A stretch of DNA of 20,105 nt from Promethearchaeota archaeon (GTDB lineage: Archaea; Asgardarchaeota; Lokiarchaeia; Sigyniarchaeales; SOKP01). A model generated the notes under the pieces. That model did no database searches. It had not been told where the DNA came from and worked only from the letters and a program-made list of their open reading frames with translations. This document shows positions 4,603 to 18,552 of the stretch, in pieces; the stretch's first letter is position 1; every line of letters starts with the position of its first letter. The stretch lies in contig JALGVJ010000055.1 of NCBI GenBank assembly GCA_029838195.1, forward strand, positions 1-20,105. Reading direction: 5' to 3'. Position numbers and translations under genes: made by a program.

Positions 4603-5457
4603 TTAAATGATGTATTTAGGGCATTGAAGGGTATCTTTATCGGTAATGATGATATAATCGGGATGGTTTCTAATGAAGGTAACGGGATAATCAGGGCCAG
4701 GCGCGCCAAATAAGGCGATTCTCAAAATAGTATTGGCCCAGTCATAAGGCGTTCCATTTCTGCAGTATAATCGAATCCTTTTAGAATTAAGAATTTCCCT
4801 CATGCCTAAAGTAAATGCAAATTTAGGAAAATTCTCTATATTTCCTCCTACATTCGCTCGAATGGCATTTATTGTAATGGTATACGCATTTAAAGCGACT
4901 TTTCTTGGGCCGGATTTTTCCACGCCTTTTTGTGGCTCATTAAACGCTACATGTCCATGAATTCCAATGCCTCCATGACACGTATCAATTCCTCCCAGGG
5001 AAGCAATCTGCTTGGCCACTTTCTTGATATTTTTTTCATTTGGAAAGATGATTTTTTCCTCATCTATTTCAATATCAGCATGTAGGTAATCAAAAAACAT
5101 TTCTTTAACAATTCGCTTGAAGCTTAGGGGATGAGTATCAGGTAAAGCACGTCCATCCTCGGAGCAATACTCATCCATGAAAAAAAACCAGCAGTTTTTC
5201 AAGGAAAGTCTCTTCTCATTAATGATGCGTGCTAAAATGGGATATTGTCCCGTAGGTCCCACGGGAAGAATTAATTTTGTGGCTTTTTTTTGGACCGAGT
5301 GGCTTTCAATTTCTTTGGCAATTTCTTCGGCGAAATGCTCGTGGAGTTCTTCTAAATCCTCACAAACGATTAGATGATTTCCCGCTTTTTCGATGGCTTC
5401 TTCCGGAGTTAATTTCAACAAGGTTCTTACTTCAATACTCCTATTATTTGTTCTCAT
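4603..5457 (-). CDS. Glucosamine-6-phosphate deaminase/isomerase (NagB/6PGL) family protein, PVGP subgroup
   Basis: FFMDEY (catalytic Asp motif), HPLSF, GGIGIHGHVAFNEP, AFTLGMREIL and DYPVT. The phosphate loop reads LPVGPTGQY instead of LATGST. Confidence 0.85.
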   Translation of the reverse strand: MRTNNRSIEVRTLLKLTPEEAIEKAGNHLIVCEDLEELHEHFAEEIAKEIESHSVQKKATKLILPVGPTGQYPILARIINEKRLSLKNCWFFFMDEYCSEDGRALPDTHPLSFKRIVKEMFFDYLHADIEIDEEKIIFPNEKNIKKVAKQIASLGGIDTCHGGIGIHGHVAFNEPQKGVEKSGPRKVALNAYTITINAIRANVGGNIENFPKFAFTLGMREILNSKRIRLYCRNGTPYDWANTILRIALFGAPGPDYPVTFIRNHPDYIIITDKDTLQCPKYII

Positions 5458-5485
5458 CTCTATTAATCAACATTCAATTGATTAA

Positions 5486-6877
5486 TTAGATTTTAGATTT
5501 CTTTTCCGCATGCAGGGTTTCTAACTTTTCTTTTATTTGTCTTAACCTCTCGCCATCTAAGGGATACTTGTAAATAGCGAAAATGGCAATTGCTAATGCG
5601 ATTGCGGGAAATATAAAGATTAATGTCCGTAAGCCAAATAGAATCTCTGGTGTAATTACATCAGGTTCAAACACAGCCCAGCCTACATTCGTAAACACGG
5701 TGGAAATAGCCAGAAAAATTAATATGGTCGTGAAGCGTAAAAATAGAGCATTAACTCCATAGTATCCGGCCTCTCTACGCATGCCTGTAACCGTCTCATC
5801 TTCATCAACGATATCAGAAACGACCAGATCAATGATATAAAGGGAGCCTGAAAGCCCAATACCGATTAGAAAAAAAGTAATTACTCCTCCAATGAAATCT
5901 TTAATGAACATTAATGGCGTGAGCGTTGCAATCCAAGAAGCCATGGAAATCATCCACGTTTTTCGATTCCCAATTTTCTGAACTAAAGGTTTCCAGAGTA
6001 TGGTCATGAAGATCACGGCTGAGATAAAAGTCAAGCCCAATAATAACGAAATTAGAAACGAATCTTGAACACCTAGCACGAATTTAGCATAAAGGGGGAC
6101 AATCGTGGGCAACATTCCGTAAACAAACCAATTACAAATTTCTGAAACGGAATACCACAAAAAAGACTTGTTCTTCACGCAGTATTTAATATTATTAAAA
6201 AATCCAGGTGCATTTTCGTGGTCCGCTTGAAATTCTTTCCGCTCTTTCGGGCCATATTTAAGAAAAATGTAGCCACATGCAATGACAATAAACATGCACG
6301 CAATTCCAAAAATTCGGTATTCAGGCAAGCTAGAAGGATCAGAGTAATCGGAGATGAAAAAGCTGGGTAAGATAAATGCCATGATAAGACCGATAATGGT
6401 GAACACCTGCCTCACATTATTCGCCTTGGCCCGTAGCTCACTCGTGATAAACACTTCTGGGAATAAGGATGTTAAGTTAAGCGAATACATTGTATAAAAA
6501 AGCTCAAATAAAATGATGATGATGAGGAAATAGATAAAATTTGCCATTTCCACGGAATTTTCAAGGGTTTTCAGAGGGGTAAAAAGCCAGAACATGATCA
6601 CGCCTAAAGGGATAAAAGCTACCATGATATAAGGAATTCTTCGCCCGAACCTTGTATGCGTCCGATCTGAAAGAGCACCTAAAAGTGGGTCGTTAAAAGC
6701 ATTCCACACGGACCAGATTATGAATCCAATCGAAATTAAAATGACGTTTATCCCCACGACAGCATAATAAAAAGTGAAAATCAAAAACGTGAATGTTTGA
6801 TAAGCCGTAACATCTCCTATCTGGCCAAAACTGTATATGGCTGCTATTTTAATAACGTTATTCTTCTTTTCACTCAT
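5486..6877 (-). CDS. MFS transporter, glycoside-pentoside-hexuronide (MelB-like) family
   Basis: About 12 TM helices, WNAFNDPLLGALSDRTHTRFGRRIPY, DIVDEDE..TG.RREAGYYG and a C-terminal YPL. It ends 28 bp before the NagB-like gene, suggesting an operon. Confidence 0.92.
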   Translation of the reverse strand: MSEKKNNVIKIAAIYSFGQIGDVTAYQTFTFLIFTFYYAVVGINVILISIGFIIWSVWNAFNDPLLGALSDRTHTRFGRRIPYIMVAFIPLGVIMFWLFTPLKTLENSVEMANFIYFLIIIILFELFYTMYSLNLTSLFPEVFITSELRAKANNVRQVFTIIGLIMAFILPSFFISDYSDPSSLPEYRIFGIACMFIVIACGYIFLKYGPKERKEFQADHENAPGFFNNIKYCVKNKSFLWYSVSEICNWFVYGMLPTIVPLYAKFVLGVQDSFLISLLLGLTFISAVIFMTILWKPLVQKIGNRKTWMISMASWIATLTPLMFIKDFIGGVITFFLIGIGLSGSLYIIDLVVSDIVDEDETVTGMRREAGYYGVNALFLRFTTILIFLAISTVFTNVGWAVFEPDVITPEILFGLRTLIFIFPAIALAIAIFAIYKYPLDGERLRQIKEKLETLHAEKKSKI

Positions 6878-7220: not shown

Positions 7221-8153
7221 ATGGCGGAGCTTGAATTAAAGGAAAAAATGAATGATTGGGGGCCGTGGGAAGAAAAGGAATCTAAATGCTTGATATTCTC
7301 TGTAGGGAATCCTAATGAAGGACATGGTTATGCCATGCCAAGAAATATAGATGATCTTCATGCTAAAAAAGCAGCTCATGATCTGGAATTTACCACGGGT
7401 CAGAGGCATGTAGCCCACATTCCTTATACAACGGATCGGTGCGGACCTGTAGCGAAAGCTTGGGCACCAGCGTTTATCCCTTTCGAGGAATTTCTTGATA
7501 AATCCATTCAATTCATGAAATATCACATTAATTTGATTAAAGAACGAGGCGATGAGATATCATTAGTATTATTACTTACAGGACACGGTGGAAATGCTCA
7601 AATATTGGAAAGAAAATATCAAAAATTAATAGAACAAGAGTTAGAGGTGAAAAAATTTAGGGCAGTTACAGCTTTAGTTGATAGAAAAGACGCGGGAGTG
7701 GTTCTGGAAGAAGTGAAAAAATTAGCTAACGAGATGATCAATACAAAAGGCACTCGATTTGGATTCAATAATGCGGATGAGTTAGCGGATTTTTATTTCA
7801 AAATTTTATTATCAGCAGGCCATGCCAGTCATGCGGAGCATAGTCTTGCAGCAGCTTTAAACGTGCTTGACATGAAAAAAGTAGAAATAATGAATGACTT
7901 ATTAAGCAAGGATTTTGAAGCGGCTCTTAGGAAATGGCCCGCTATAGGGGGATTAGGCGGATATTTATTAGCAGGAGGAAAATACACGGAAGCCTTGGGA
8001 ACGGAAGATAATGATAAATTTGGTTTATGGAATTGTTTAAAAGGGCTTAGAGAAATTAACGAAGGAAAATTAGTTGTAGCGCCAGAGCTTGGTCATTTGA
8101 TCCATGACGTGAGTTTAAAAATCAAGACCACATTGATTTATAAGTATATTTAA
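7221..8153 (+). CDS. Creatininase-family metal-dependent amidohydrolase (ArfB/FAPy-deformylase-like)
   Basis: Metal-ligand motifs E-G-H-G-x-x-x-P-x-x-x-D (NEGHGYAMPRNIDD), TGHGGN and GHASHAE. An AAGGAGGA RBS lies at 7203-7210. Confidence 0.8.
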   Translation: MAELELKEKMNDWGPWEEKESKCLIFSVGNPNEGHGYAMPRNIDDLHAKKAAHDLEFTTGQRHVAHIPYTTDRCGPVAKAWAPAFIPFEEFLDKSIQFMKYHINLIKERGDEISLVLLLTGHGGNAQILERKYQKLIEQELEVKKFRAVTALVDRKDAGVVLEEVKKLANEMINTKGTRFGFNNADELADFYFKILLSAGHASHAEHSLAAALNVLDMKKVEIMNDLLSKDFEAALRKWPAIGGLGGYLLAGGKYTEALGTEDNDKFGLWNCLKGLREINEGKLVVAPELGHLIHDVSLKIKTTLIYKYI

Positions 8154-8185
8154 AAATTTTTTTACATGTTTTTTCCTTTAAATTT

Positions 8186-9058
8186 TTAATGAGTTTTTCC
8201 AAGAAGATATTTAAAAAAGATTTTCCAATTTTTTGGTCTGATAAAAATAGCAGGAACTCGTTTTTGATAATCTTTATATGAATTCCCAAATCGATTGATT
8301 AATTCTTTTTCTTCTACGAAATGAATATGAATATTAAATAAAAAATAATAAAAAATAAAATTAATAATTGAATAGAGCGTCATTTGAAATAACATTCCTC
8401 CCATACATATCAGTACTAAGCTTGCATAAGCCGGATGACGTAACACGGAATAGATCTCATGATCTTGAAGTTTACTTTCCTCAGGAAAATATAGGTAAAC
8501 CAATGCCATGTAATCGATGCCAAAAGTACTGACGGCTCTTAATGTCATAAGAATTCCAATAACTAAAAAAAAAATTCCTAAAATTAGTTGGAATATTGAA
8601 AATAATGAATACATAGAAGTAAAATAGAGGGGTAGGGGGGTACTAAAAAGTGACAAGGGATAATAGGACAAATAAATAGAGTTTAAGCGATAAAAGGGAA
8701 TCCAATTATGAATGGAGATGCTAATAATAACACTAAGGCCAGTAAGGCCTATTAAGATGATTTTTTGATATGCTAATTGACCATATTTAGCTTTCAATCG
8801 ATCTTTGCGGGACCACATTTGATAAACTAAAAATAATCCACAGCATCCCATTAAAACAATTCCAAGAATTGGAAATAAAATAATAATCTCATTCTTAATT
8901 CCATTTTCAAAAAATATTATTGGTAGTAGGTCAAAACTAAATTGTATCAAAAAACTAATGGTGAAAATCGAAATAAAATAAATAGGAACTAAAAGTATCT
9001 TTTTTCCCGTAAAAAATGATACTTTTTCTTGAAATTCATGTAATCCTTTAATTTTCAT
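8186..9058 (-). CDS. Isoprenylcysteine carboxylmethyltransferase / phospholipid methyltransferase (ICMT/PEMT) family membrane protein
   Basis: Multi-TM protein with the family motifs IYSVLRHPAY and EEKELINRFGNSYKDYQKRVP. Confidence 0.85.
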   Translation of the reverse strand: MKIKGLHEFQEKVSFFTGKKILLVPIYFISIFTISFLIQFSFDLLPIIFFENGIKNEIIILFPILGIVLMGCCGLFLVYQMWSRKDRLKAKYGQLAYQKIILIGLTGLSVIISISIHNWIPFYRLNSIYLSYYPLSLFSTPLPLYFTSMYSLFSIFQLILGIFFLVIGILMTLRAVSTFGIDYMALVYLYFPEESKLQDHEIYSVLRHPAYASLVLICMGGMLFQMTLYSIINFIFYYFLFNIHIHFVEEKELINRFGNSYKDYQKRVPAIFIRPKNWKIFFKYLLGKTH

Positions 9059-9445: not shown

Positions 9446-10114
9446 ATGAAATATTTTTTAGATAGTGCTAAAATTGATGAAATTAAATATGCATTGGAAA
9501 ATTGGAATATTGAAGGTGTTACTTCCAATCCAAAACACGTGAAGGCTTCGGGAAAATCTTTTTCAACCATATTAAAAGAATTTGCTGAAGAATTCAAGGA
9601 GCTTAATTTTCCGATTTCCGTAGAGATAAACCCTCATTTACAAACCGCTGATGATATGATTGAGGAAGCAATGAAAATATCATCGCTTTCCGATAATTTT
9701 GTTATTAAAATACCATGTACCGAACAAGGTTTAATTGCTACCAAGAAATTAACCGAGGAGGGGATACGAATAAATGTAACGCTAGTTTTTACGGCATCGC
9801 AAGCTCTTCAAGTAGGCAGAATCGGTGCTTCTTATTGCTCCCCTTTTATAGGATGGCAAGAAGCTTCTGGCGTCGATTGTTTTGAATTATTATCAAATAT
9901 TATTGCTATCTATGAAAATTATGATTTTGATACGGAAATCATAGTGGCAGCTGTTCGCAATGGGAAGCAAATCGTTGAAGCTGCAATTCTTGGTGCAGAT
10001 ATTGTCACTGCGGGCTTTCAAGTATATAAAGATAGCTTTTACCATCCTTTTACAGATAGAGGATTAAAGATTTTTCAGGATGCCTGGGATGATACGGAAT
10101 TAGGTTCATTATAA
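9446..10114 (+). CDS. sqvA: Transaldolase (small TalC/FSA-type), probable 6-deoxy-6-sulfofructose:GAP transaldolase (SqvA/SftT-like)
   Basis: D6, N28, Schiff-base K88 (VIKIP), and the transaldolase-type E60 and F134. SPFIGW has W137 where canonical enzymes have a phosphate-binding Arg. NPKH and AAVR (Ser to Ala, R171) also fit. The sequence closely resembles Bacillus SqvA as I recall it (MKYFLDSA..EI.YA.ENW...FPISVEINPHL...). Confidence 0.85.
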   Translation: MKYFLDSAKIDEIKYALENWNIEGVTSNPKHVKASGKSFSTILKEFAEEFKELNFPISVEINPHLQTADDMIEEAMKISSLSDNFVIKIPCTEQGLIATKKLTEEGIRINVTLVFTASQALQVGRIGASYCSPFIGWQEASGVDCFELLSNIIAIYENYDFDTEIIVAAVRNGKQIVEAAILGADIVTAGFQVYKDSFYHPFTDRGLKIFQDAWDDTELGSL

Positions 10115-10200: not shown

Positions 10201-12339
10201 TCAAGCTTTTACCTCGAATTCGCCGGTCAAGATTTTATTTTTGTACTCCGGAATGGGCTCAAAACCTCCTATTGAGATTTTAAAAACTCCTTCTTCAATC
10301 ACTCTTTTTCCTTCATTATTTATAATCGAATATTCTCTTGGGGTTAAAAGAAAAGAAATGTTTTTTCTTTCTCCTGGTTTTAACTGAATTTTTTTAAATC
10401 CTTTTAATTCTCTTAAGGGAGGATTTAAAGAAGATTCTATTTTGCTGAGATATAATGAAACAACTTCTTGACCTAATCGATTGCCTGTATTTGATATTTC
10501 CACATTAACCTTAATATTTTCACCCTTTTTGATTTTTTTAGGTGCTATTTCCAAGTTATCAAGTTTAAAGGTCGTATAACTTAGGCCGAATCCAAATGGA
10601 AAAAGAGGTTCTCCTTTAAAAAACCTATACGTCCGATTTTCCATGTCATAATTTTCAAAATCGGGAAGATCGCTAGTGGATTTATAAAATGTTATGGGTA
10701 ACTTTCCGGAAGGATTATAATTTCCAAAAATCACATCTGCAATCGCATTACCGCCTTGTTCTCCTGGATACCACGCTTCTATTATTGCTGTAATATTTTT
10801 TTTAGCAAAATTAATCGAAAGTGCGCCCCCATTCATTAGTACTAAAATAATGGGTTTTTTCAGGGAAGCTAGCTCTTTTAAAAGCTTTTCTTGAACTTTG
10901 GGCAAATCCAATGTATTCCTATCCCCTTTTAAGGGACCTAATACAAATCCTTCTTCTCCTTCGAATTGTCCGGTCAATCCTAAGATCATGATAATGACCT
11001 CTGCTTTATCCGCCATATCTAACGCTTCTTGCGATAAAAATTCATCTCTATTAAAATGTTCGCATCCTTTGGAATAAAAGATTTTTGTAGTAGAAGAAAG
11101 CATATTTTTTATTCCTTGAAGGGGTGTGTTATATTGTTTGGGTGTACCATTATAATCACCTAAAAGGGCTTCTAAATGATCGGCATTAGGGCCGATGATG
11201 GCTATCGATTTTATATTTTTCGATAACGGAAGGATTCTATTTTCATTTTTTAAGAGAACAATGGATTCTCGTGCCATTTGCAGGGATAAATTTCGATGTT
11301 CATCACAATTAACCACATCCATGGGGATGTTAGAATAAGGAACATTATCTGTAGGGTCAAACATCCCAAGTCTGAAGCGTGCGAGGAAAGAGAATTTCAA
11401 GGCTTCATCTATAGTTGATTCATTTAAAAGGCCTTCTTTTACAGCTTTTTTAACATGCACGTGATATCGCTTGATTTTTAGGGTAGTCATGATATTCAAG
11501 GGATTGATAACGTTGCATCCCCCTTTTAAGGCCCTTGCGGCGGCTTCTTTGAATGTTGCTACAACTTCATGTCCGGAATACATGTCTGTAACTGCTCCTC
11601 CATCCCCAATCACATAGCCATCAAATTTCCATTGTTCTCTTAAAATTTCTTTTAAAAGTTGAGAGTTTGAACAACATGGCTCTCCATTTAATCGATTATA
11701 AGCCCCCATTATTCCTTTAGCCTTTCCAATAGTGATGCATGCTTCAAATGCCGGTAAATAGGTTTCCCATAAATCTTTCTCTTTGACTTCAATATTGATT
11801 TCATGGCGTTTATTTTCTGGACCGCTATGGACGGCAAAATGTTTAGGTTCTGCTATTGTTTTTAAATATTTTGGATGGTTTCCTTGTAATCCTTTCACGA
11901 ATGCAATACCCATTTGCGAAGTTAAATACGGATCTTCACCAAACGTTTCTTGTCCTCGCCCCCATCGAGGATCTCGGTAAATATTAATGTTAGGAGCTGC
12001 AAACGTGAGTCCATGATACCGCACGCGCTTGTTTTGTTTAATTGCTTCATGATGTTTTGCTCTCGCCTCGGTGGAAATTGCATCTGCCACTTGATATACT
12101 AATTCGGGATTCCATGACGCACTCATTCCAATAACTTGAGGAAATACAGTGGCGTATCCCGCAAAAGCTACTCCATGAATGCATTCATTTCTCCAATCAT
12201 AGCGCGGGACGTGTAATCTTTTTATTTCTAAGGAAATATTAAATAATTGAGATATTTTTTCATCAAATGTCATGTGTCCAATTAAATCTTTTACCCTTTC
12301 CTCGAATGAAAGAGTCGTGTTCATGAAATTATAACTCAT
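10201..12339 (-). CDS. Glycoside hydrolase family 3 (beta-xylosidase/beta-glucosidase-like, cytoplasmic, FN3-like C-terminus) with an atypical -1 subsite
   Basis: PNINIYRDPRWGRGQETFGEDP, KHFAVHSGPE, nucleophile D246 (GYVIGDGG), EGEE acid/base region, AWYPGEQGG, SGKLPITF and FPFGFGLSYT. No signal peptide is visible. Confidence 0.93.
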   Translation of the reverse strand: MSYNFMNTTLSFEERVKDLIGHMTFDEKISQLFNISLEIKRLHVPRYDWRNECIHGVAFAGYATVFPQVIGMSASWNPELVYQVADAISTEARAKHHEAIKQNKRVRYHGLTFAAPNINIYRDPRWGRGQETFGEDPYLTSQMGIAFVKGLQGNHPKYLKTIAEPKHFAVHSGPENKRHEINIEVKEKDLWETYLPAFEACITIGKAKGIMGAYNRLNGEPCCSNSQLLKEILREQWKFDGYVIGDGGAVTDMYSGHEVVATFKEAAARALKGGCNVINPLNIMTTLKIKRYHVHVKKAVKEGLLNESTIDEALKFSFLARFRLGMFDPTDNVPYSNIPMDVVNCDEHRNLSLQMARESIVLLKNENRILPLSKNIKSIAIIGPNADHLEALLGDYNGTPKQYNTPLQGIKNMLSSTTKIFYSKGCEHFNRDEFLSQEALDMADKAEVIIMILGLTGQFEGEEGFVLGPLKGDRNTLDLPKVQEKLLKELASLKKPIILVLMNGGALSINFAKKNITAIIEAWYPGEQGGNAIADVIFGNYNPSGKLPITFYKSTSDLPDFENYDMENRTYRFFKGEPLFPFGFGLSYTTFKLDNLEIAPKKIKKGENIKVNVEISNTGNRLGQEVVSLYLSKIESSLNPPLRELKGFKKIQLKPGERKNISFLLTPREYSIINNEGKRVIEEGVFKISIGGFEPIPEYKNKILTGEFEVKA

Positions 12340-12598
12340 GGTTTTTCTATCATTCTATAATTATTAGTTAAAGAAATCATGAAAAATATTAAAATCCATA
12401 CTTTTAATTCGCAGACATAAATTAAACCTATTTAATGAAAGAGCTATCTTTTATTATTAAATAGAAATATCAGAATAATAGAGAAGAAATGCGAGTTTTA
12501 TTAATTAAATTAGCTCATTTTATTTTGTATTTTCAGAAAAACTTTAACATAAAACCAAAATTTAATGAATATTATAAAAACGATAAATACTGAATAAA

Positions 12599-13918
12599 AT
12601 GAAACAAAAAATTCGCATTGGAGTCGTTTGTTTAGCAAGAAAAACTTTTGATTTTCAAGCAGCTCAAGATTTATTTAAACAAATTCAAGAGAAAATAATG
12701 TTAATTGAAGATGTGATTTGGGAAATAATTCCAGATTTAATCTTCGAAGTCGAGGAGGCGCAAGATGCGGGGCAGATATTGGCAACAAAATCAATTGATG
12801 GGTTAATTTGTATTAATGGAACGTTTGCTTTAGGGCATTTAATTTTAGAAATTAATAAATGGATTAGAGTTCCTATTTTATTATGGGGTTTGGAAGAATT
12901 ACCACATAAAGGGGGCAAGATTCGTTTAAATTCTACATGCGGATTGAACCTCAATGCTTCAAATTTATATAAAGCGGGAATACGTAATTATCATTATTGT
13001 ATTGGAGGAGAAATAGATAAAGATTGGTTAGATGCGATTCGAATTTTAAAGACTTTTTCCACGGCACGTGTAGGAATAATTGGTTCACGTGCACGTGGAT
13101 TTTTCAATGTAGATGTGGATGAGTTAGATCTGTATAAACAATTAGGCGTGTTAATCGATTACTATCAATTAGAAGAGCTTCTAAACATGGGTATTGAAAA
13201 TGTAGAAATAGAAAAACGCATTGAAGAATTAAAAGCCAATTTTGACATATCTGAATTAAATGATCAGCAACTACGAAAAGTTGCGGAATTAATTGTTAGA
13301 CTTGATGAATTCATGAAAGTAAAATCATTAACTTCCATGGCGATTCGATGTTGGCCGGAATTTGCGGAGTATTATGGAATTTCTCCTTGCGCAGCAATGT
13401 CTGTATTACAAGCTGAGGGAAAAATTTTAACTTGTGAGGGAGATATTTTAGGAAGTTTATCAATGTTAGCACACGTGGCCATTGGCGGCCAATATCCTTT
13501 TTTAGCTGATTTTTCTCAAGTCGATTTCAAGGAAAATTTTGCTTTATTATGGCATTGTGGAGTTGCTCCATGTAATCTATGGGATCAAAAATGTACTCGA
13601 TCATTGGATACCTATTTTGCAGGAGGTAAAGGCGTTACTGCGGGTTTTGTCTTGAAAAGTGGGGATCTTTCAATATTACGCTTGGATTATTCCCCTCCGA
13701 ATGAATACAGGATCTTTCTACAACAAGGTAAAGCTATCCCCATAGCAAAAGAGCTTAAAGGCACATTTGCTAAGGTTGTTTTTAAAGAGGATGTGAGGAA
13801 TGTCTTGAATAAAATCATTAAGAATGGAATTGCACACCATGTATCTGTCGTGTATGGCGACTTTATCAAGCCCCTTGAAATTTTTGCAAAATTAAAAGGA
13901 TGGAAGGTTATTAAATAA
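12599..13918 (+). CDS. sqvD: L-fucose/L-arabinose isomerase-family aldose-ketose isomerase, probable sulfoquinovose isomerase (SqvD/SftI-like)
   Basis: Metal-site motifs AIRCWPEF, TCEGD, LAD, WHCG and GIAHH. The N-terminal RKTFD and IRLNS motifs match my recollection of SqvD/SftI. It is translationally coupled to a YihQ-like gene. Confidence 0.75.
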   Translation: MKQKIRIGVVCLARKTFDFQAAQDLFKQIQEKIMLIEDVIWEIIPDLIFEVEEAQDAGQILATKSIDGLICINGTFALGHLILEINKWIRVPILLWGLEELPHKGGKIRLNSTCGLNLNASNLYKAGIRNYHYCIGGEIDKDWLDAIRILKTFSTARVGIIGSRARGFFNVDVDELDLYKQLGVLIDYYQLEELLNMGIENVEIEKRIEELKANFDISELNDQQLRKVAELIVRLDEFMKVKSLTSMAIRCWPEFAEYYGISPCAAMSVLQAEGKILTCEGDILGSLSMLAHVAIGGQYPFLADFSQVDFKENFALLWHCGVAPCNLWDQKCTRSLDTYFAGGKGVTAGFVLKSGDLSILRLDYSPPNEYRIFLQQGKAIPIAKELKGTFAKVVFKEDVRNVLNKIIKNGIAHHVSVVYGDFIKPLEIFAKLKGWKVIK

Positions 13919-15882
13919 TGGATTTCAAACAAAAAGAGGATGGTTTTGAACTTTATTTTAACAATCAATTAATAATAAAGCACGACGAAACAAATCCTTG
14001 TTTTAAATTAGGAAAAGGAACTGCACGTTTTAAATTAAAAGGGCATAAATTTAAAATTCAAGAAAAATTATTAGAAGAATTTTCTCTCAAACACCATGAA
14101 CTCATCTCTTTCAGCAATAAAGGCGATTCTCTAAGTAGATTAGAACTATCTTTTTCCAATGCAAATACAAAATTAACGGTAGAAATTGAAGAAAAAGGCA
14201 ACTTCTTAGAGATAATTCCTCATTATAGTGACTCATCCATTAATCGTTTTTGGTTTTTTCTCAACGCATGTCCCGAAGAAGCCATTTTTGGATGCGGCGC
14301 ACGCTTTGAGAAAATAAACTTGCGAGGAAGCATCATTCATTCTTGGGTAGAAGATTGTTCGCCCGTTTTTAGAGATTATTATACCTATTTTCCCTTACCT
14401 ACTTTTATTTCAAGCAGCAACTATTTTTGTCATGTTGACACTTGTAAATATTCAGAATTTAATTTTGAAGCTCCTGATTATCATGTAATACATGTTTGGG
14501 GAATTCCTAAAAAAATTATCATCTGTAAGCAAGACAACCTCATTTCTTTAATTAAAGAATTATCTAATTATTTTGGAAGACAACCTCCTTTACCTGATTG
14601 GGTACATGATGGTATTATTCTTGGAATTCAAGGCGGAACTCAAGTTGTTGAAGAAAAAATAAAAATTGCGGAAAAAGCAGGTATTAAAATCTGTGCAGTC
14701 TGGTGTCAAGATTGGCAAGGAATTCGAATGACTTCTTTTGGCCAGCAATTATTTTGGAATTGGAAACATGATGATACACGGTATCCAAATTTGCCCATCT
14801 TTATTAAAGAGCTAAATGCGCGGGGAATAAAATTCTTAGGATATATTAATACTCAATTGAGTACTGAGGGAGATCTATATAAAGAAGGAGCCGACAAGAA
14901 TTATTTCTTAAAAAATGATAATGGTGAGGATTATATTATCTATACTACGGATTTTCCTGTAGCAGTACTGGATTTGAGTAATCCTAATACATTAACGTGG
15001 ATTAAAGAAATCATTAAAAAACACATGTTAGGAATTGGATTAGCCGGTTGGATGGCAGACTATGGTGAATATGTTCCGGTTGATGCAGTAAATCATGCGA
15101 GGAAAGAGGGGGAGTGTTTCCACAATGAATATCCGGTTATTTTTGCTAAAATCATGCATGATCTCTTAAAAGAGGAAGGAAAACTGGATGAAATTTTCTA
15201 CTTTCATAGATCAGGATACATCCATTCTTCAAAATACATGATGTGCTATTGGCCGGGAGATCAATTGGTCGATTGGGATGATAAGTTAGGAATTGGTTCA
15301 GTAATTTCTTGCGGAATTTCGTTAGGACTATGTGGAATTGGAAATTATCATTTTGATTTAGGAGGTTTTACGACGTATGGCCCTTATAAACGATCTAAAG
15401 AATTATTCATGCGATGGGCAGAATTATCCGCTTTTTCCTTAATCATGAGAACTCATGAAGGCAACCGTCCTAAAGACAATTGGCAATTTGATGGCGATTC
15501 TGAAACTTTAGAACACCTCTCAAAAATGGTAAAGATACATGTTCATCTCAAACCCTATCTACTTGAATGTGAAAAAGAATATCAATTAACGGGTATTCCT
15601 CCCATGAGACCCCTATTCTTACATTACCCCAAGGATTCCATCTTACATGATCTTAATTTTCAATATTTATTAGGAAGAGATTTATTAATCGCTCCCGTGA
15701 TCCAACCGAAAAAAAATCAGTGGAACTGTTATTTACCAGATGATTCTTGGATACACGCATGGTCAGGAAAGCGATTTAAAAAAGGATGGTACGTGGTAGA
15801 AGCGCCCCTTGGTAGACCTCCCGTTTTTTATCGTGAAACATCCCACCATGTGGGATTGTTTAATGAATTAAAGAATTTCTGA
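13918..15882 (+). CDS. yihQ: Glycoside hydrolase family 31, YihQ/sulfoquinovosidase-like alpha-glycosidase with a variant sulfonate pocket
   Basis: GRQPPLPDW, LGIQGG, WCQDWQGIRMTSFG..L.WNW, nucleophile GWMADYGEY (D381), acid/base WPGDQ.VDW (D448) and MRTHEGNRP.DNWQFDGD. The start overlaps the upstream stop (TAATG, 13916-13920). Confidence 0.9.
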   Translation: MDFKQKEDGFELYFNNQLIIKHDETNPCFKLGKGTARFKLKGHKFKIQEKLLEEFSLKHHELISFSNKGDSLSRLELSFSNANTKLTVEIEEKGNFLEIIPHYSDSSINRFWFFLNACPEEAIFGCGARFEKINLRGSIIHSWVEDCSPVFRDYYTYFPLPTFISSSNYFCHVDTCKYSEFNFEAPDYHVIHVWGIPKKIIICKQDNLISLIKELSNYFGRQPPLPDWVHDGIILGIQGGTQVVEEKIKIAEKAGIKICAVWCQDWQGIRMTSFGQQLFWNWKHDDTRYPNLPIFIKELNARGIKFLGYINTQLSTEGDLYKEGADKNYFLKNDNGEDYIIYTTDFPVAVLDLSNPNTLTWIKEIIKKHMLGIGLAGWMADYGEYVPVDAVNHARKEGECFHNEYPVIFAKIMHDLLKEEGKLDEIFYFHRSGYIHSSKYMMCYWPGDQLVDWDDKLGIGSVISCGISLGLCGIGNYHFDLGGFTTYGPYKRSKELFMRWAELSAFSLIMRTHEGNRPKDNWQFDGDSETLEHLSKMVKIHVHLKPYLLECEKEYQLTGIPPMRPLFLHYPKDSILHDLNFQYLLGRDLLIAPVIQPKKNQWNCYLPDDSWIHAWSGKRFKKGWYVVEAPLGRPPVFYRETSHHVGLFNELKNF

Positions 15883-17166: not shown

Positions 17167-18552
17167 ATGCTAAAAATTTCTTTTATTGGTGCTGCGTCTC
17201 TCGTGTTTGGGGAAAATATCATTTCAGATCTCTTGAGCTTTCCTGCTTTAAGAAAAGATACCCTTATTTGCTTGGAAGATATCGATGCTCATCGCTTGGA
17301 CCTCATCTATCAATATTTTCAAAAATATAAAGAATTAAATGAAAAAGAATTGGAAGGTGTTCAAATCGAAAAAACTACGGACCAAAAAAAAGCTATAGAA
17401 GATGCTAAATATATTATCAATGCAGTGCACGTGGGTGGTTTAGATGCATATAAATTGGATGTTGAAATACCGTTTAAATATGGCGTGTCTCAAACAGTCG
17501 GAGACACCTTGGGTCCTGGCGGAGTGTTCCGATTTCTTCGAACGGTTCCATTTTTTAATCAATTACTTGAAGACATGAAGACCATCGGATATAATGCGGA
17601 TAAAAAAGAAGGAAAAAAATCCCTATTATTAAATTATACGAATCCCATGGCCATGAATACGTGGTATTGCAATTTAATTTACCCTGGCTCTACGGTAGGT
17701 CTATGCCACGGCGTTCAAGGCACGGCGCATCTTCTCAGGCTATGGCTGGGGGCAAGACCAGAAGAAATAAGTTATTTCTGTGCTGGCATCAATCACATGG
17801 CTTGGTTTTTAGAATTCTGGTATAAAGACTCGAACGACCCCAATGCTCAATGGCAAAATGCTTATCCCTTACTTCGTGAAAAATTTAAACAATCAGAAAA
17901 ATTACAAAGGCTAAAAGGCATCCGCTGGGACATGATGGAAGCTACAGGATATTTTATGACCGAATCCGATGGACATCTTTCTGAATATCTCCCTTATTAT
18001 CGAAAGCGAAAAGATCTCTTGGAAAAATATAGAGTAGGGCCCGATTGGCTAAGCACCCTTGAACAAGCCTCTGACTATCACGAACAAGTAAAGTTTCAAG
18101 AGAGTCTGGAAAGCTTTTTTCGAAGAAAAATGAAACGAAGAAAACTTCCCTTTAGAAAAGCCGCTTCAGATGAGTATGCTTCTCATATCATTAACGCTCT
18201 TGAAACAGGAGTACCGTTTAGATTTAATGGAAACGTGATAAATAAAGAAGGAAGTTTAATCACCAATTTGCCTAATAATTGTTGCGTGGAAGTCCCCATT
18301 TTCGCAGACAAACAAGGGCTTCACCCTCAAGGAGGAATTATATTACCAACCATTTGCCAAGCTTTATGTATATCTAATATCATGGTACAAAAAGCCGCAG
18401 TTGAAGGTGCTCTCACGTTAGACAAGGAAAAGATATATCACGCCATTCTTCTTGATCCCAATACTGCCAGTGTTTGCTCCCCCGCAGAAATAAGAGAAAT
18501 GGTAAATGAAATGTTCGAGGCCGAGAAACAATGGGTCAATTATTTCGATTAA
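17167..18552 (+). CDS. melA: Glycoside hydrolase family 4 (NAD+/Mn2+-dependent), alpha-galactosidase/MelA-like
   Basis: Rossmann motif KISFIGAAS, KYGV.QTVGDTLGPGG.FR..RT, NYTNPM, GLCHG (Mn-Cys), GINHMAW, TES.GHLSEYLP and NLP...CVEVP. Confidence 0.88.
   Translation: MLKISFIGAASLVFGENIISDLLSFPALRKDTLICLEDIDAHRLDLIYQYFQKYKELNEKELEGVQIEKTTDQKKAIEDAKYIINAVHVGGLDAYKLDVEIPFKYGVSQTVGDTLGPGGVFRFLRTVPFFNQLLEDMKTIGYNADKKEGKKSLLLNYTNPMAMNTWYCNLIYPGSTVGLCHGVQGTAHLLRLWLGARPEEISYFCAGINHMAWFLEFWYKDSNDPNAQWQNAYPLLREKFKQSEKLQRLKGIRWDMMEATGYFMTESDGHLSEYLPYYRKRKDLLEKYRVGPDWLSTLEQASDYHEQVKFQESLESFFRRKMKRRKLPFRKAASDEYASHIINALETGVPFRFNGNVINKEGSLITNLPNNCCVEVPIFADKQGLHPQGGIILPTICQALCISNIMVQKAAVEGALTLDKEKIYHAILLDPNTASVCSPAEIREMVNEMFEAEKQWVNYFD

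Follow-up and report, generated by a model that had tools for sequence, protein, structure and literature searches.

An arginine-bearing GH3 variant beside sulfofructose transaldolase-type genes in Lokiarchaeia: a candidate beta-sulfoquinovosidase

Introduction

Which sugar is released by a glycoside hydrolase family 3 (GH3) enzyme in which the tryptophan that meets C5 of xylose in xylosidases has become an arginine, and is that sugar the substrate of the sulfo-sugar genes among which the GH3 gene lies? The question is raised by a locus of a Promethearchaeota archaeon (Lokiarchaeia; GenBank assembly GCA_029838195.1, contig JALGVJ010000055.1), of which a stretch of 20,105 nucleotides, here called the window, was analyzed. 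The initial annotation of the window proposed that the arginine forms part of a pocket for an anionic C6 group and that the enzyme is a candidate beta-sulfoquinovosidase. All characterized sulfoquinovose (SQ) pathways are bacterial, no archaeal one having been characterized (PMC12890257), and our literature search found no GH3 sulfoquinovosidase. Beta-linked SQ is documented, in the literature found, for Sulfolobales N-glycans only (PMC10755693, PMC12890257).

Results

An intact xylosidase-type GH3 with altered motifs

The GH3 open reading frame is intact (Table 1). Its product contains the three Pfam domains PF00933, PF01915, and PF14310, each above cut-off, which correspond to the (beta/alpha)8 domain, the alpha/beta sandwich, and the FnIII domain of GH3 enzymes. 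An AF2 model (pLDDT 95.6) is nearest in shape to the beta-xylosidase PcBxl3 (7vc6; TM 0.91, rmsd 2.2 A). The N terminus is not hydrophobic (hydropathy maximum 0.45), so the enzyme is probably cytoplasmic.

Table 1. Features of the window discussed in the text, with the GH3 residues given by their codons
Feature	Position	Strand	Remark
GH3 beta-glycosidase, xylosidase-type scaffold, WRNE subfamily (His-type)	10201..12339	-	712 aa, three domains, no signal peptide
WRNE motif	residues 49-52	-	R50 codon AGA at 12190-12192
R50 codon (AGA)	12190..12192	-	aligned to Trp60 of PcBxl3 / Trp87 of TrXyl3A; invariant in 39/39 clade members
A114 codon	11998..12000	-	aromatic replaced (Phe129 of PcBxl3 / Tyr152 of TrXyl3A; Trp in 96% of Trp-type relatives)
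E164 codon (AEPKHF)	11848..11850	-	replaces Thr (99% of Trp-type relatives); may form a salt bridge with R50
Nucleophile D246 and G247 codons	11599..11604	-	G247 is the lost Cys of the beta-face disulfide
N279-P280 codons	11500..11505	-	invariant in clade; stands for the second Cys of DLNCG
Sulfofructose-transaldolase-like gene (SqvA/SftT type)	9446..10114	+	305 bits to BmSF-TAL 8bc3
Intergenic region between divergent GH3 and isomerase starts	12340..12598	.	259 bp
FucI-family isomerase, SqvD/SftI-like	12599..13918	+	NF048012 221 bits, cut-off 700
YihQ-like GH31	13918..15882	+	633 bits to E. coli YihQ 5aed; QQQWF instead of QQRWY
GH4 glycosidase	17167..18552	+	kept beside GH3 in close relatives
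NagB-like gene and GPH-family MFS transporter	4603..6877	-	recurrent accessory cluster genes

The four motif changes described initially were all found where they had been placed, namely WRNE with R50, TFAAP at residues 112 to 116, GDGG at 245 to 248 with the nucleophile D246, and NVINP at 276 to 280. Two of the accompanying points need qualification. In the replacement of TFWSP by TFAAP, W114A is informative and the change of Ser to Ala is not, because Trichoderma reesei Xyl3A has YAP at this place. The insertion noted after NVINP is present but also occurs in archaeal Trp-type paralogues, including the one encoded by the same genome (contig C76; 54% identical), and thus reflects lineage history and is not part of the Arg signature. 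R50 itself is not an assembly error, since a contig of the public sequencing run X2, which may be related to the source sample, spans positions 12062 to 12311 and agrees at the R50 codon, the sole difference being at 12267. The public runs that best match this DNA are hydrothermal-vent metagenomes.

Position of R50 in subsite -1

Alignment to PcBxl3 places R50 at Trp60, E52 at Glu62, and A114 at Phe129. In GH3 xylosidases, this Trp contacts C5 of xylose, Phe129 or Tyr152 extends the hydrophobic wall, and a disulfide faces the beta side, whereas glucosidases lack the Trp and so have room for C6 (PMC8913315). The alignment and these structures together bear out the earlier statement that the Trp two residues before the Glu fills the C6 space and that R50 stands at its position. 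The binders of O2, O3, and O4 (E52, R128, K166, H167, and Y214), as well as M211 and Y396, are invariant among the GH3 homologues, and D246, K166, H167, R128, E52, E460, and E462 are invariant in 103 sequences, so that the catalytic residues of a GH3 enzyme are in place. Because the ring-holding and catalytic residues are unchanged, the pocket should still read a gluco- or xylo-configured ring and be rebuilt on its C5/C6 side only.

In the AF2 model, the changed residues sit at the C-terminal ends of the barrel strands, and by alignment Arg and Asn (R50 and N279) occupy positions that line C5 and C6; the side chain of R50 would be predicted to point at C6. E164 replaces Thr in 35 of the 39 clade members described below, co-varying with R50. 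It may pair with R50 and neutralize its charge, and a buried R50-E164 salt bridge could run through the space left by W114. The four clade members without E164 keep R50, and one lineage of these is found directly beside a transaldolase-isomerase-GH31 (TAL-ISO-GH31) group.

The WRNE clade

Two homologue searches were pooled and gave 39 proteins with R50 and 110 without it (Trp-type). R50, G247, N279, P280, I244, D48, F59, and R107 are invariant in the 39 proteins, in which residue 114 is always Ala or Ser; R50, G247, N279, and P280 occur in only 0-1% of the Trp-type homologues. Identity within the R50 set is at least 49% and on average 59% (49-59% being the range quoted for the 39 homologues carrying the signature). 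In a tree built with a quick method and rooted at its midpoint, the 37 R50 proteins that were placed fall on one side of a branch with 98% SH-aLRT support, and their neighbors are Trp-type proteins with the same insertion after NVINP. All named or placed members come from Asgard archaea. A DNA pattern search detected the WRNE motif in 12 of 400 Asgard genomes, all of one family, a count that may miss variants because the pattern demands the exact motif. The clade comprises a His-type subgroup (WRNECxHG), which includes the protein studied here, and a derived Gln-type subgroup, which makes up two thirds of it.

When all GTDB genomes were scanned, two further GH3 genes, both bacterial, showed a lone W-to-R change, and the 7 to 8 kb examined around them contained no SQ genes. 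Both were rejected as clade members, one because it keeps FWS, SDC, and NLNCG and the other because its active site is degenerate. Of the latter kind is an acidobacterial GH3 (L068:6579-7998) that combines WRNE with a degenerate active site, in which RYF stands for KHF and His for Arg in RWGRG. The WRNE clade is a conserved, uncharacterized specificity variant of GH3 that has so far been seen in Asgard archaea only.

Linkage to sulfo-TAL-type genes

Among 135 genomes of the family, at least one of the transaldolase, isomerase, and YihQ-like genes is present in 12 of the 12 WRNE genomes, compared with 32 of the 123 others. As a control, a pathway gene occurs in 13 of 25 genomes with a Trp-type GH3. 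The association is weaker once genus is controlled, since relatives are not independent: within-genus shuffling gave p = 0.02 for the isomerase and for any pathway gene, 0.05 for two or more genes, 0.10 for the transaldolase, and 0.14 for GH31, with values of 0.07-0.62 for the Trp-type control.

Gene position separates the two subgroups. In each of the 8 informative His-type loci, which represent three lineages of the tree, the transaldolase or isomerase gene is no more than about 10 kb from the GH3 gene, as is expected of sulfoquinovosidases in SQ-type clusters. Gene order differs between these loci, yet the GH3 gene is mostly head-to-head with one of the two. By contrast, Gln-type genes are near a core pathway gene in only 1 of 13 loci, although their pocket is the same. 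An AEC transporter gene (PF03547) adjoins nine Gln-type genes and was considered as a link to the cluster; it was set aside as weak evidence, being present in 65 of the 135 family genomes. A metagenome scan, which yielded mostly Trp-type genes and was used as a negative control, revealed pathway neighbors in 0 of 79 non-WRNE loci (46 of the 80 loci being at least 10 kb long), and in the 13 family genomes that hold both, a Trp-type GH3 gene was never on a contig with a pathway gene. The predicted link between WRNE homologues and sulfoglycolysis genes thus stood up to the comparison of genomes. At the same time, no WRNE match was obtained in 32 of the 44 genomes that carry a pathway gene, so the GH3 is accessory to the pathway.

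Neighboring genes

The transaldolase scores far better with the Bacillus megaterium sulfofructose transaldolase than with the best ordinary transaldolase (305 and 165 bits, respectively). It retains W137 and R171 and has Lys in place of R30, a substitution seen in 17 of 17 lokiarchaeal SqvA-like transaldolases read. The retained Trp is the residue that orients the sulfonate (PMC11659671). SqvA-like transaldolase genes were found in 26 of the 135 family genomes, often in the order TAL-isomerase-GH31.

The GH3 gene had been described as lying between sqvA-like and sqvD-like genes and sharing a promoter region with isomerase-GH31. Its placement is confirmed, as it is divergent from isomerase-GH31 and convergent with the transaldolase gene across an 86-bp gap; the shared promoter found no support, a scan of the 259-bp region scoring no better than shuffled sequence.

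The isomerase is well below the SqvD/SftI equivalog cut-off (Table 1), and so is its Brachyspira relative (171 bits). This relative, 48% identical, is the closest full-length one outside the isomerase's own 50% cluster, and it sits in a canonical cluster with TauE, a reductase, YihQ (QQRWY), and a TNPRH transaldolase. The Brachyspira reductase is 43-45% identical to one in three lokiarchaeal clusters. A Brachyspira pilosicoli-like contig (L182:572-9965) carries an apparently complete sulfo-TAL cluster of TRAP transporter, TauE, reductase, isomerase, YihQ, M24 peptidase, and TAL. In one genome (G269; C63, L031), the isomerase is split over two frames by a frameshift or an assembly error.

The neighboring GH31 departs from QQRWY/KERWY, which we take to be the sulfonate motif of GH31 sulfoquinovosidases after checking the residues against E. 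coli YihQ: it lacks both the sulfonate Arg and the Tyr. The Arg is absent from 17 of the 19 lokiarchaeal YihQ-like GH31 copies scored, most of which read QQQW(Y/F); the two others retain it (QQRWF and KQRWF). Together with K30 of the transaldolase, the loss of the sulfonate Arg suggests that the substrate of the pathway may not be plain SQ. Supported by the match of the transaldolase to sulfofructose transaldolase and by the Brachyspira cluster, the lokiarchaeal cluster probably encodes a sulfo-sugar pathway, albeit one with non-canonical features.

Around this core, NagB-like (9 loci), amidohydrolase_2 (10), and sulfatase (9) genes recur, as do GH2 and GH4 genes. The NagB-like gene (positions 4603-5457 in the window) is usually paired with amidohydrolase_2, and the two might act as the deacetylase/deaminase through which an amino sulfo-sugar enters the pathway. 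The clusters of relatives include a sulfolactaldehyde-reductase-like gene and an AEC transporter gene (L013:6764-8573; L057:5975-7787; L180:1460-3272) that are absent from this window, and the best reductase match elsewhere in this genome (contig C77) is only 33% identical. A search for the mutarotase SqvB through DUF4867 was blank, as was its search control. The window further contains a creatininase-like amidohydrolase gene with a convergent PEMT/ICMT-like methyltransferase gene (7221-9058), the former having a 45% identical paralogue on contig C75 and occurring near the cluster also in loci L081 and L082, and a gene (16-1809) whose NosD-like beta-helix product is anchored in the membrane and contains near-identical tandem repeats, each about 23 residues long.

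Possible sources of SQ glycans

Recycling of the organism's own SQ glycans is not supported, because no match to UDP-SQ synthase was found in this genome. Full-length UDP-SQ-synthase-like homologues occur in 18 of 400 Asgard genomes and score 350-455 bits; the cut-off is 575, which one of two control hits also failed to reach. These 18 include none of the 12 WRNE genomes. Such genes may indicate that SQ glycans, of unspecified linkage, are supplied by the environment.

Discussion

The reading that we favor, and to which we would give an even chance, is that the WRNE protein is a cytoplasmic retaining exo-beta-glycosidase for a gluco-configured sugar with an anionic C6 group, which it supplies to the neighboring pathway. 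Its ancestor would be a xylosidase-type GH3 of Lokiarchaeia, whose subsite -1 would have been rebuilt along its C5/C6 wall by W50R, W114A, C247G, C279N, and T164E. With W114 and the disulfide gone, R50 and N279 would have room to bind the anionic group. By analogy with the family, hydrolysis would proceed by double displacement with D246 as the nucleophile and E460/E462 in the acid-base loop. The sugar would be released from small imported beta-glycosides and pass to the neighboring isomerase and then to the sulfofructose transaldolase. SQ is the most likely such sugar, although the step to a strict beta-sulfoquinovosidase is a tentative one; the remainder of that even chance falls to a 6-sulfate, a 6-phosphate, or a related 6-sulfo sugar. 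Several observations weigh against this reading: E164 co-varies with R50, Gln-type members share the pocket but are near a core gene at a single locus, the co-occurrence weakens within genera, most genomes with a pathway gene yield no WRNE match, GH31 and TAL depart from the canonical anion motifs, beta-linked SQ is documented narrowly, and a lone W-to-R change exists in two bacterial GH3 proteins without SQ genes.

The main alternative is a neutral beta-glucosidase or beta-xylosidase in a general sugar-scavenging island, in which R50 would be structural, held by a salt bridge to E164, and would open room for a C6 hydroxyl or a 6-O-substituent. The co-variation of E164 with R50 is what such a role predicts, the island also has GH4, GH2, sulfatase, and peptidase genes, most Gln-type genes are distant from the core, and a widened -1' pocket has precedent within GH3, for example, in isoprimeverose-producing enzymes (PMC8913315). 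We nevertheless consider a neutral substrate rather unlikely, for R50 is kept where E164 is missing (four members, among them a lineage situated right beside TAL-ISO-GH31), and every WRNE genome has a pathway gene, a linkage that the neutral Trp-type paralogues do not show. An improbable alternative is a beta-glucuronidase, whose C6 carboxylate would be bound by R50 and N279 in convergence with SN243 (Arg136) and the NxK motif of GH2. Beta-glucuronides are commoner in nature than beta-SQ, and Arg with Asn suits a carboxylate as well as a sulfonate. That a GH3 can bind a C6 carboxylate through Arg is established (10.1101/2022.04.25.489410). The neighbors of the WRNE gene, however, are of sulfo-TAL type, and neither a uronate isomerase nor a KDG pathway gene was recognized in the annotated loci. 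SN243, moreover, is of NagZ type, and its Arg136, which we take to correspond to BsNagZ Arg57, would lie in another loop than R50.

The whole lokiarchaeal cluster might instead act on an amino or ester variant, for example, an N-acetylated 6-sulfo amino sugar or a 6-O-sulfate, which the GH3 would release and the NagB-like protein and amidohydrolase would funnel to sulfofructose. The recurrence of NagB-like, amidohydrolase_2, and sulfatase genes and the non-canonical anion motifs of GH31 and TAL are in keeping with this proposal. Yet the O2 binders show no recognized change (R128 and Y214 are invariant), the NagZ dyad is missing, many clusters have no NagB-like gene, and the literature search found no such pathway; we regard it as quite improbable, slightly more so than a beta-glucuronidase.

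Returning to the anionic-sugar reading in its SQ form, we tentatively propose that sulfo-sugar activity appears in GH3 for the first time with the WRNE clade, which would also be the first sulfoquinovosidase to be both retaining and beta-specific, and with which Lokiarchaeia would harvest beta-SQ from the debris of archaeal glycoproteins for an archaeal sulfo-TAL pathway. If true, sulfoquinovosidases would gain a third family, one of new anomer specificity, and GH3 a new activity, reached from a xylosidase by few pocket changes; Asgard archaea would be tied to the sulfo-sugar cycle, and the enzyme could serve to strip SQ from archaeal N-glycans. Such harvesting would also imply that sediments commonly contain beta-SQ glycans. 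Should another sugar prove to be the substrate, the WRNE clade is still a well-defined, uncharacterized GH3 specificity group.

Among known systems, the GH3 beta-xylosidases PcBxl3 (7VC6/7VC7), TrXyl3A (5A7M/5AE6), and XlnD (6Q7I), and the bacterial Xyl3A family NF041776, are the closest. They share with the WRNE protein the three-domain fold (TM 0.89-0.91), the Glu at O4, the Arg/Lys/His binders of O3 and O4, the alpha-face Tyr, and the Asp nucleophile. Unlike them, it has Arg (R50) for the Trp packing on C5 and Ala (A114) for the adjacent aromatic residue (Phe129/Tyr152), and G247 and N279 mark the loss of the beta-face disulfide; its NF041776 score is 818 bits against a cut-off of 1250, in a model with about 130 extra positions. 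The GH3 beta-glucuronidase SN243 (7QE2) likewise uses Arg for a C6 anion but has the His/Asp dyad of NagZ and is not among the 60 best PDB sequence matches of the WRNE protein, which reads KHFAVHSG in place of KHFPGHG-x4-D(S/T)H (NF003740, 31 bits against 207).

Cleavage of beta-SQ is already known from GH188, and an Arg-based site for a C6 anion from one GH3, SN243. The GH188 sulfoquinovosidase SqgA hydrolyzes both anomers of PNPSQ, with beta-linked N-glycans as a suggested substrate (PMC10755693); the NAD+-dependent enzymes of this family thus resemble the proposed activity in cleaving beta-PNPSQ and differ in fold, in their oxidoreductive mechanism, and in accepting both anomers. GH31 sulfoquinovosidases such as YihQ are retaining, are encoded in SQ clusters, and have an Arg-based sulfonate site, but are alpha-specific and belong to another family. 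The sulfo-TAL (sulfo-SFT) pathway of Bacillus megaterium and B. aryabhattai shares with the lokiarchaeal locus an SqvA-like transaldolase, an SqvD-family isomerase, and a YihQ-like GH31, from which the locus described here differs in its archaeal host, in K30 of its transaldolase, and in the added GH3, GH4, and NagB-like genes.
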